Assembly: GCA_023412455.1 (NCBI GenBank)
Contig: JAEYNQ010000267.1
Span: 5,302-69,301, forward strand
DNA: 64,000 nt
From: Bacillota bacterium
Lineage (GTDB): Bacteria; Bacillota; Clostridia; Lachnospirales; Cellulosilyticaceae
Direction: 5' to 3'
Shown here: positions 9,921 to 10,684 of the stretch, one piece after another
Numbering within the stretch: the first letter of the stretch is position 1
Layout of the letters: every line of letters starts with the position of its first letter
Position numbers and translations under genes: made by a program
The notes under the pieces: model-generated
Database searches by the model: none
What the model was told of the DNA's origin: nothing
Seen by the model: the letters and a program-made list of their open reading frames with translations, nothing else

Positions 9921-10307
9921 TTACGGGCTATCTGATAAAGGATTTAATAAATGGTTGAGTTGACTCGTTGCATTTTTCCCTGTACAGTCGTCATGATAAG
10001 TGAGAAGAATATTATTTGAAAGGCTAGGAACTTCCGGAGTGGATGGGAAGGTATACTCAAAATAAGCTGTTTCTGCTGGTGCTAGATTTCCCATTTCTAA
10101 AAGTGTAATGTTCCCTTCAAAAGACAAGGCCCCTCGTTCTCTTATAATAACACTTTCTACAATGGGGACAGGAGTACCTGAGATAAGGAGCTTTAGATCG
10201 CTAATATAGGCAGTGGAAATGTTTGTCAATTTAACTTGTTTGACCATTAGTTCATTGGATGCTGAGGGCGTTTTATTTAATTCTGAAGCTTCAAGTAGCA
10301 TTTTCAT
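9921..10307 (-). CDS. Small beta-sandwich protein, DUF11/CARDB-like, no signal peptide
   Basis: The likely start is MKMLLEAS, preceded by the AGGAGGTGA RBS; the track ORF begins 16 codons earlier. The segment NITLLEMGNLAPAETAYFEYTF resembles the ...lG.L.pGes.t..y.. strand pattern of DUF11/CARDB repeats. The family call is tentative. Confidence 0.5.
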   Translation of the reverse strand: MKMLLEASELNKTPSASNELMVKQVKLTNISTAYISDLKLLISGTPVPIVESVIIRERGALSFEGNITLLEMGNLAPAETAYFEYTFPSTPEVPSLSNNILLTYHDDCTGKNATSQLNHLLNPLSDSP

Positions 10308-10368
10308 AGGCTCACCTCCTGATTTAGTATATGCAGGATAGAAGGTTGAAAACACAAGAAAAAAGACA

Positions 10369-10397
10369 TAAAAAAAGGTAGGTTAAAACCTACCTTA
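10369..10397 (-). terminator. Terminator-like hairpin after the Cys-rich gene
   Basis: On the minus strand, AAGGTAGGTT pairs with AACCTACCTT and is followed by TTTTTTT. Confidence 0.55.
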
Positions 10398-10408
10398 AGA
10401 GTAAAGGA

Positions 10409-10684
10409 CTATCTCCCCCAATTAGAGTTACAGCCACAACCACAACCGCAACCACGATTACAACCACAACCGCGATTACGCCTGCAACCACATTCTTCTT
10501 CCTCTTCTTCTTCTTCTTCTTCTAAGAACTCATCAATGGCTTCATCGATCTCTTTAAGAAGTTGAAAAGCTTCTCTGCAACGACATCTGTTAAATAAGAA
10601 ATTAGAGTTTTCATTACGTCTGATATTACGCTCAGAATTACGTTCAGAATTACACCCACAACTATTAGAACAACCACAACTCAT
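10409..10684 (-). CDS. Cys/Gly-repeat, poly-Glu small protein (91 aa), unknown function
   Basis: The sequence is MSCGCSNSCGCN...EEEEEEEEE-CGCRRNRGCGCNRGCGCGCGCNSNWGR. It has a strong RBS (AAAGGGGG) and its own terminator, and the ORF is long for such low-complexity sequence. It has 18 Cys, mostly in CGC triplets at both ends, flanking a helical acidic core. Confidence 0.6.
   Translation of the reverse strand: MSCGCSNSCGCNSERNSERNIRRNENSNFLFNRCRCREAFQLLKEIDEAIDEFLEEEEEEEEEECGCRRNRGCGCNRGCGCGCGCNSNWGR

Follow-up and report, generated by a model that had tools for sequence, protein, structure and literature searches.

The subject of this report is a pair of adjacent minus-strand genes in a 64,000-nucleotide stretch of DNA (the window) from a Bacillota bacterium of the family Cellulosilyticaceae (assembly GCA_023412455.1, contig JAEYNQ010000267.1, positions 5,302 to 69,301 of the forward strand). 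One gene encodes a Cys-rich protein of 91 amino acids, and the next encodes a protein of 128 amino acids that is predicted to form a beta sandwich. A preliminary description of this DNA had suggested that the two might constitute a spore coat or exosporium pair or, alternatively, that the smaller protein might be a metallothionein-like metal buffer. The evidence presented below tips the balance slightly toward the first of these proposals. The genes and their immediate expression signals are located as follows.

10409-10684, minus strand: gene for the 91-amino-acid Cys-rich acidic protein (open reading frame [ORF] and translation)
10694-10701, minus strand: ribosome-binding site AAAGGGGG of the Cys-rich gene, read from the sequence and kept in orthologs
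10368-10396, minus strand: intrinsic terminator of the Cys-rich gene, with a 9-bp stem, a TTTT loop, and a T-run
9921-10307, minus strand: gene for the 128-amino-acid protein, predicted to be an all-beta Ig-like sandwich; ORF read from the ATG at 10307
10315-10320, minus strand: ribosome-binding site AGGAGG of the 128-amino-acid gene, read from the sequence

The ORF and translation of the Cys-rich gene agree with the preliminary description, whereas two details of its product do not. The protein reads MSCGCSNSCGCN...CGCGCGCNSNWGR, and a direct count gives 14 Cys (15%) rather than 18, together with 17 Glu, 12 Asn, 12 Arg, and 10 Gly; its longest Glu run is 10 residues, not nine. An MSCGC N-terminus is followed by a central helix (residues ∼27-60) and by a CGC repeat that extends to a C-terminal NWGR. 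AlphaFold2 (AF2) models the protein as a single helix (27-60) with disordered Cys-rich tails, at an overall predicted local distance difference test (pLDDT) score of 52. Scans of the protein and eight diverse orthologs against Pfam-A and NCBIfam gave no match, and a word-based search of 5.8 billion sequences returned only one homolog, its own close relative. An Rfam scan of the region yielded nothing real. The terminator that had been assigned to this gene is indeed strong (dG −12 kcal/mol, z −4.1), and consists of a G+C-containing stem at 10375-10396 with a T-run that continues to ∼10368. At two orthologous loci (L001 and L004), the hairpin and T-run are kept with altered stem bases.

The coordinates, AGGAGG ribosome-binding site, length, and lack of a signal peptide described for the second gene are likewise borne out by reading the sequence. 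Neither protein has a hydrophobic N-terminal stretch, a signal peptide, or a membrane segment, as judged by eye with no predictor run. When supplied with an alignment of 29 sequences, AF2 predicts a nine-strand sandwich for the 128-amino-acid protein (pLDDT 87.8, predicted template modeling score 0.80), and on this model the protein is a beta sandwich. Its invariant residues (N29, S31, R58, G59, G73, N74, L75, and E79) lie within the motifs ITNxS, RERGSL, and LGNLAPxE.

The preliminary description had called this protein DUF11/CARDB-like. The Ig-like sandwich stands, but membership in the family does not, because scans of Pfam-A and NCBIfam gave no family match for the protein and no DUF11 match at E≤1. 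Among its homologs, 2 of 29 have weak, sub-threshold DUF11 (PF01345) matches (best E 1.7e-4), and matches to CBM49 and DUF7077 are just as weak. Foldseek searches against the Protein Data Bank (PDB) retrieved generic Ig-like or CBM-like sandwiches alone (template modeling score ≤0.54), including a TRAP beta subunit, a GH20 N-domain, CBM3, and SdrG, and a profile search of PDB sequences gave only noise. The long repeat proteins matched by phmmer are Ig, cadherin, or SRCR repeat proteins rather than DUF11 proteins, and are uninformative. The two weak DUF11 matches and the generic Foldseek matches indicate that "DUF11-like" describes a fold-level resemblance only. The protein resembles DUF11 and CARDB domains in the size of its Ig-like sandwich and in a GNLAPxE-type strand motif; unlike those repeats, it is a single free-standing domain that has no signal peptide or anchor.

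The two ORFs are genuine genes, and purifying selection acts on both. The reading frame of the Cys-rich gene is kept in relatives at lengths of 273, 228, and 222 nt, each a multiple of three. The ratio of nonsynonymous to synonymous substitution rates is lower in the 128-amino-acid gene (0.12-0.14) than in the Cys-rich gene (0.23-0.47). These values and the preserved frames indicate that conservation acts on the protein and does not merely reflect low-complexity DNA, a possibility that had been raised at the outset.

The gene pair is confined to Cellulosilyticaceae, a family of spore-forming anaerobes from gut and soil, where its synteny is conserved. Among 1.8 billion representative proteins, phmmer found 30 relatives of the 128-amino-acid protein and no more. 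A word-based search identified two close ones, from a metagenome-assembled genome (87% identity) and from Sporanaerobium hydrogeniformans (hypothetical protein CS063_12035; 65%). A whole-genome search located the gene in 27 of 37 genomes of its own family and in none of 24 genomes from other families of the order. With a profile built from 29 homologs and run on Lachnospirales genomes, 27 of 32 Cellulosilyticaceae genomes were positive versus 0 of 269 others. A test for co-occurrence across Clostridia had been suggested at the outset; the two genes co-occur throughout one family. Source names identify this family as Cellulosilyticaceae, and it includes Sporanaerobium, Cellulosilyticum, Niameybacter/Holtiella, and Candidatus Epulopiscium viviparus. 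A literature search found no paper on either protein.

The family appears to be an endospore-forming lineage, because spoIVA is present in 36 of the 37 family genomes examined; dpaA is present in most. For the same reason, a comparison of the phyletic profile of the pair with those of spoIVA and dpaA is uninformative.

Six-frame reading of the loci and BLASTP comparison of the neighbors define a recurrent unit, in which a divergent ykvI-family gene is followed by at least one Cys-rich gene and then by the beta-sandwich gene. A Cys-rich ORF lies directly upstream on the same strand at nearly every beta-sandwich locus, and more than 25 genomes have an ortholog of the Cys-rich gene at the corresponding syntenic position. 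The contigs of both close relatives share an extended gene order: RelA/SpoT-like, abrB-like, spmA, spmB, a 250-amino-acid gene, HD-GYP, a 352-amino-acid membrane protein gene, Cys-rich, 128-amino-acid, a second HD-GYP, and asnB.

The product of the middle gene varies to an unusual degree. Orthologs range from 63 to 486 amino acids and contain 8 to 86 Cys. Cys content is 9-29% in most family members versus 3-7% in the Epulopiscium genus. What is kept is an N-terminal M(S)C(G/N)C motif and, in most members, a C-terminal aromatic-Gly-Arg motif (NWGR, YWGR, TWGRCE, or YYGRC). The sequence between these termini is of low complexity and rich in Cys, Asp/Glu, Asn, or Pro. Most genera carry an internal module, C..CEPN...CAGYG..CNCACPP, which is replaced in the genus of the window and its nearest relatives by an acidic amphipathic helix, C(R/E)EAFELL..I..A(I/L)DDF(L/Y)(D/E)n. 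In the Epulopiscium genus, the termini are kept and the protein is Pro-rich. The ortholog in Ca. E. viviparus (genome G014, locus L039 2747-3565) comprises 272 amino acids with 3% Cys, and has a globular-looking C-terminal part that ends in YYGRC. From these comparisons, the 91-amino-acid ORF appears to be a short local representative of a Cys-rich protein family that is undescribed, confined to Cellulosilyticaceae, and extremely fast in its evolution.

Gene number varies as well. Genome G006 (L026 387-2377) has four tandem paralogs of the middle gene (135-157 amino acids, ending in YYGRC) in front of the beta-sandwich gene, each with its own ribosome-binding site and a short spacer. The window's own genome holds additional Cys-rich ORFs away from the pair. 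These include an ORF of 355 amino acids with 34 Cys behind the sequence cCATATTATA (contig C291, ∼11754, plus strand), two adjacent ORFs of 63 and 121 amino acids (contig C188, ∼19166-19770, plus strand), and two 105-amino-acid proteins with CATA boxes that are DUF1540-like by eye (contigs C51 and C285). They are further candidate spore-layer genes.

No public sequencing run was found to contain the window's own locus. Transcription was therefore read on an orthologous locus, L010, in a complete 4.7-Mb genome of genus g2, which includes named Cellulosilyticum species. Matching contigs are present in four metatranscriptomes. In run X1, a 550-nt contig covers positions 807-1374, where the Cys-rich gene spans 801-1367, at a word depth of 61.7, while the depth on the beta-sandwich gene and the next gene is 3-4. 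The contigs from gut runs X2 and X3 that were placed on the locus all fall on the Cys-rich gene. The leftmost of these begins at position 766, near the start predicted from the −10 box (∼756). Thus the Cys-rich transcript is discrete, abundant, and monocistronic in these community samples. In-frame deletions of 18 and 6 nt occur in the contigs within the Cys/Asp repeat (L010 1160-1185), and such strain-level differences suggest ongoing repeat expansion and contraction.

The following promoter elements were identified upstream of the two genes.

10737-10746, minus strand: −10 box GCATATTATG of the Cys-rich gene, of the sigma-K/E type (GCATANNNTA); sequence GCATATTATg
10761-10765, minus strand: −35-like element TGTCA, conserved, 14 nt upstream of the −10 10-mer
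10719-10728, minus strand: palindrome GTAGCGCTAC at the predicted mRNA start, conserved with variants in g1, g14, and g2
10325-10334, minus strand: −10 box GCATATACTA of the 128-amino-acid gene, which fits both sigma-K (GCATANNNTA) and sigma-E (KCATANANTN) consensus sequences

The CATA-type boxes seen originally are present, although their coordinates had been given one base off (CATATTAT lies at 10738-10745 and CATATACTA at 10325-10333). The box of the Cys-rich gene is strongly conserved. Of 26 orthologous regions, 22 contain the pattern [GT]CATAnTAT 48-98 nt upstream of the Cys-rich gene, compared with a background of 1.6% among 2298 upstream regions of the window's genome. When aligned, the upstream regions share the block aaTGTCA(t/a)-N6-GTC..-GCATAnTATa. 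Here TGTCA precedes the 10-mer GCATAnTATa by 14-15 nt in ∼19 of 22 orthologous promoters, and a second GTC(G) follows it by 10 nt in most relatives. The earlier statement that no convincing −35 element could be found can be amended for the Cys-rich gene; none is clear for the 128-amino-acid gene in the window.

Published consensus sequences for the −35 and −10 elements are KCACM and GCATANNNTA for sigma-K, TYATATTT and KCATANANTN for sigma-E, and GNATA and CAWAMTA for sigma-G (PMC3416734 Table 4). The two elements are separated by 14-16 nt in sigma-K promoters (Eichenberger et al. 2004, PMC517825); for sigma-E, the same study assigns the −35 element to positions 1-8 and the −10 element to positions 21-30, which leaves 12 nt between them (PMC517825). 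The −10 box of the Cys-rich gene equals the sigma-K 10-mer consensus, and in the Epulopiscium genus TGTCA is replaced by canonical sigma-K-type GCAC or TCAC. Ca. E. viviparus retains GCATACTATA, a GCAC −35-like word, and the beta-sandwich gene. A sigma-E promoter for the Cys-rich gene was considered and rejected; if the −35 element is read as TCATTTTT, the gap is 9-10 nt rather than ∼12, which is 2-3 nt short.

Promoters of sporulation genes in the same family provide a reference. Those of dpaA, in the window's genome and related ones, read GCAC-N17-CATAnnnTA, that of spoIVA reads GTATATA-N14-CATATATT, and the gap in spoIIID promoters is ∼11-12 nt. Promoters of small acid-soluble spore protein (SASP) genes in the window's genome and in genome G016 carry GAATA or GTATA, followed after N17-18 by CATAnT. 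Unlike these SASP genes, the Cys-rich gene has no GnATA at N17-18 in its promoters. The forespore (sigma-G/F) type was therefore rejected, and the absence of this −35 element makes forespore expression unlikely. Overall, the promoter of the Cys-rich gene fits the mother-cell sigma-K/E type in its sequence. At most of the 20 loci examined, across genera, the box of the 128-amino-acid gene is kept as CATAnnnT(A/G). In two relatives (L024 and L027), a sigma-E-like TCATTTTT lies 11 nt upstream of it, as read by eye.

The sequence GTAGCGCTAC, just downstream from the −10 box of the Cys-rich gene, is a perfect 10-bp palindrome. Because it folds only weakly as RNA (z −0.24), a stabilizing hairpin in the 5′ untranslated region was rejected, and the palindrome may instead be a protein-binding site. 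A search for the promoter pattern throughout the window's genome gave three strict and 15 loose matches, with no recognizable regulon.

Two further features flank the pair.

10870-11928, plus strand: ykvI-family membrane protein gene (352 amino acids), the conserved left-hand neighbor of the pair
9846-9888, no strand assigned: long hairpin and probable bidirectional terminator, with a 20-pair stem followed by a T-run

The divergent neighbor is named "YkvI family membrane protein" in relatives by the National Center for Biotechnology Information (NCBI) and the Joint Genome Institute (JGI), and homologs with 50-100% identity adjoin the Cys-rich gene at almost all loci. In Bacillus subtilis, ykvI is one of seven regions detected by chromatin immunoprecipitation on microarrays for SpoIIID that adjoin a SpoIIID-regulated mother-cell gene (PMC517825). 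A block upstream of ykvI in the window (within 10685-10869) is conserved across genera as aCATAttt-N14-GAATATATATA. It is followed after 5-8 nt by GGA(C/T)AAG, which resembles a SpoIIID box. This conservation hints that all three genes might be expressed in the mother cell. The long hairpin is placed between the convergent 128-amino-acid gene and an HD-GYP gene. HD-GYP-type genes bracket the block at 8775-9845 and 12062-13129; the one downstream from the beta-sandwich gene is syntenic in closer genera (39-67% identity), and the second is 23-31% identical to it.

What might these proteins do? An outer-spore-layer structural role is suggested by the combination of restriction to a spoIVA-bearing family, CATA promoters, the absence of signal peptides, monocistronic high expression, strong variation in length and repeats between conserved termini, and a very high Cys content that falls in the Epulopiscium genus. 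We consider it somewhat more likely than not that the Cys-rich protein is a lineage-specific, disulfide-cross-linked component of the spore coat or exosporium and that the beta-sandwich protein is its partner. The original proposal of a spore-layer pair is thereby strengthened, although it is still unproven, by co-occurrence within an endospore-forming family, by the CATA boxes, by the lack of secretion signals, and by a Cys-rich member that evolves rapidly. According to the model that we propose, sigma-K/E-type promoters would drive both genes in the mother cell during late sporulation. Their products, made without signal peptides, would remain in the mother-cell cytoplasm and be deposited on the developing spore. 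An outer coat or exosporium layer might then be held together by intermolecular disulfides of the Cys-rich protein. The beta-sandwich protein could serve as a conserved partner or adaptor, perhaps by docking to the conserved helix or to the terminal WGR motif. We infer the acting sigma factor, the location on the spore, the disulfide cross-linking, and the interaction between the two proteins.

Several observations weigh against a spore-layer pair. Although TGTCA has sigma-K spacing (14-15 nt), it shares only three of five letters with KCACM in most genera, and the promoter of the Cys-rich gene is also passable as sigma-A-like (ATGTCA-N17-TATTAT). In the window, the 128-amino-acid gene has no recognizable −35 element, and its −10 box ends 4 nt before the ribosome-binding site, which implies a very short leader. 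Ca. E. viviparus bears live offspring and makes no dormant spores, yet it keeps the module and its promoter, so the function cannot be tied strictly to a resistant coat. The RNA support consists of contigs from uncharacterized community samples that carry no information on strand, conditions, or timing. Finally, three observations concern the pairing itself. ykvI and the HD-GYP gene are co-conserved with the pair, so that adjacency may reflect synteny throughout the family; the beta-sandwich gene is missing from genome G020, which does have the Cys-rich gene; and in genome G003 (L032 1654-2854) two unrelated ORFs are inserted between the two genes. The inserted ORFs (267 and 142 amino acids) overlap and lie on the opposite strand in a toxin-antitoxin-like layout.

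These last three observations favor a scenario in which both genes encode sporulation proteins that act independently, and in which their adjacency is inherited synteny rather than a functional pairing. Separate promoters, the strong terminator between the genes, and a ∼15-fold difference in transcript depth are also consistent with independence. However, gene order and orientation are kept over ∼13 genera even though the Cys-rich gene has diverged beyond recognition. In addition, at the three loci of genus g8 whose ykvI surroundings could be read, neither gene of the pair adjoins ykvI, and the 128-amino-acid profile had no match in the one g8 genome sampled. We regard independence as possible, albeit unlikely, an estimate that stands apart from those given for the other readings.

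Another alternative starts from the sigma-A-like reading of the promoter. In this case, the genes would be expressed in vegetative or stationary phase, their products would have a non-spore role inside the cell or at its envelope, and a response regulator, for instance Spo0A, would bind the tandem GTCA-N6-GTCG boxes. A sigma-70-type scan scores the promoter 9/12 with 17-nt spacing. By eye, a likeness to 0A boxes (consensus TGTCGAA) can be seen in TGTCA and in the TGTCG/TGACGAA-like repeat that follows it. The module also persists in viviparous Epulopiscium, and the metatranscriptome samples are not known to be sporulating. Nevertheless, the invariant G-C-A before TA argues against sigma-A, which would require TAnnnT but should not conserve G and C across more than 10 genera. 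TGTCA is lost in the Epulopiscium genus and in genome G020 while GCATAnTATA is kept, and the former has GCAC or TCAC in its place. Upstream of the second gene stands a textbook CATAnnnTA box, with no sigma-A −35 element. There is also no obvious vegetative role for a protein that stays in the cytoplasm, lacks a conserved fold, and consists of up to 29% Cys. We therefore judge vegetative expression to be improbable.

The metallothionein alternative is weakened by the comparative data. It holds that the Cys-rich protein is a cytoplasmic metal or redox buffer (for Zn, Cu, Cd, or Fe-S) and that the beta-sandwich gene is an unrelated neighbor. Dense Cys-Gly-Cys units, the lack of a signal peptide, an acidic run that could bind cations, and a transcript that is abundant relative to its neighbors in community samples would all suit such a function. 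Metal sites normally fix the geometry of their ligands, whereas the number of Cys residues, their spacing, and the length of the protein vary here even between genera. No metallothionein or other metal-binding family was matched in Pfam or NCBIfam, and the locus has no associated metal-responsive regulator or transporter. In its promoter the gene carries a sporulation-type GCATA box rather than a metal-regulator operator, and it is restricted to a family in which spoIVA is nearly universal. A metal buffer now seems quite improbable.

A more speculative version of the spore-layer reading, to which we also assign a low probability, replaces a passive coat brick with an oxygen- or redox-triggered "zipper" that is specific to Cellulosilyticaceae. 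The poly-Cys arms would remain reduced in anoxic gut or sediment and would cross-link on contact with oxygen, hardening the shell upon exit from the host. The beta-sandwich protein and the terminal (W/Y)GR(C) would supply the docking geometry. In viviparous Epulopiscium, the module, which has lost most of its Cys but retains a sigma-K-type promoter, would have been repurposed for the envelope of the live intracellular offspring or for the interface with them.

It is very improbable that the Cys-rich protein is the precursor of a thiazole- or thioether-rich ribosomally synthesized and post-translationally modified peptide, matured or exported by the asparagine-synthetase-like gene or the ykvI transporter, because its azole-like CGCGCGC tracts, the divergent upstream membrane protein gene, and an AsnB-type gene (6733-8643) with a sub-threshold match to a lasso-peptide cyclase model are outweighed by an ordinary asparagine synthase score for that gene (TIGR01536, 478 bits against a cut-off of 267, versus 231 against 525 for the cyclase), by the absence of cyclodehydratase, radical-SAM, or lanthipeptide enzymes among the neighboring genes checked, by orthologs of up to 486 amino acids that lack leader/core architecture, and by the fact that, within the short flanks compared, asnB adjoins the pair at some loci only.

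If a spore-layer function is correct, then the pair is a candidate outer-layer module for the whole of Cellulosilyticaceae, which includes cellulolytic bacteria of guts and digesters as well as the giant Epulopiscium. Clear sequence signatures mark this module, and both its promoter and its partner gene are conserved. Outer spore layers govern the survival, spread, and host interaction of anaerobic spore formers. To our knowledge, the components of these layers are lineage-specific, and almost all of those described come from Bacillus and Clostridioides difficile. The range from 29% Cys in some members to 3% in a live-bearing bacterium is a natural experiment that could reveal the role of the Cys residues. 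Cultured members such as Cellulosilyticum lentocellum and S. hydrogeniformans exist and could permit direct tests. The finding is thus a lead for spore biology in Cellulosilyticaceae and Epulopiscium, although in principle it is no surprise.

The closest functional analog is CdeM of C. difficile. CdeM is a 161-amino-acid protein with 8.7% Cys that consists of short Arg/Glu (RREA), Asn/Gly-rich, and CxC/CC (CNCC) repeats (PMC6101409). Its gene is monocistronic and controlled by sigma-K, and the protein, a mother-cell product that has no signal peptide or recognized domain, is confined to a narrow lineage; both CdeC and CdeM are reported to be absent from Lachnospiraceae (PMC6101409). The window protein is alike in size class, composition, monocistronic organization, CATA-type promoter, and narrow distribution. 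Family scans and homolog searches detected no similarity to CdeM or CdeC, with no direct pairwise comparison run. Unlike CdeM, the family described here is far more variable (63-486 amino acids, 3-29% Cys), has its own termini (MSC(G/N)C and (W/Y/F)GR(C)), and is linked to a beta-sandwich gene and ykvI.

Other Cys-rich or rapidly evolving proteins are more distant parallels. In B. subtilis, the crust proteins CotY and CotZ are mother-cell products whose genes cluster with those of their partners (cotVWXYZ). Like ExsY of the exosporium in the B. cereus group, they are Cys-rich proteins that self-assemble into disulfide-cross-linked outermost layers (as summarized in PMC6101409). These proteins are conserved and folded, with fixed Cys positions, whereas in the present family conservation is limited to the termini and the middle is of low complexity. 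Pfam and NCBIfam scans detected no homology to CotY, CotZ, or ExsY. CotG of B. subtilis, a coat protein of low complexity with many repeats, also evolves rapidly, and across a lineage its gene remains beside that of its conserved partner, CotH. However, CotG is rich in Lys, Arg, and Ser rather than in Cys, CotH is a kinase rather than an Ig-like sandwich, and the two genes are divergent rather than in tandem. Bacterial metallothioneins of the SmtA/BmtA type share small size, high Cys content, and CxC units with the Cys-rich protein, but their Cys pattern is fixed around a metal cluster, and the present family has neither a fixed pattern nor a family match. Lineage-specific Cys-rich proteins of the spore surface are therefore already known. 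What is new at this locus is an unrelated family with its own signatures, a conserved, predicted Ig-like partner, and an unusually wide range of Cys content that tracks lifestyle.

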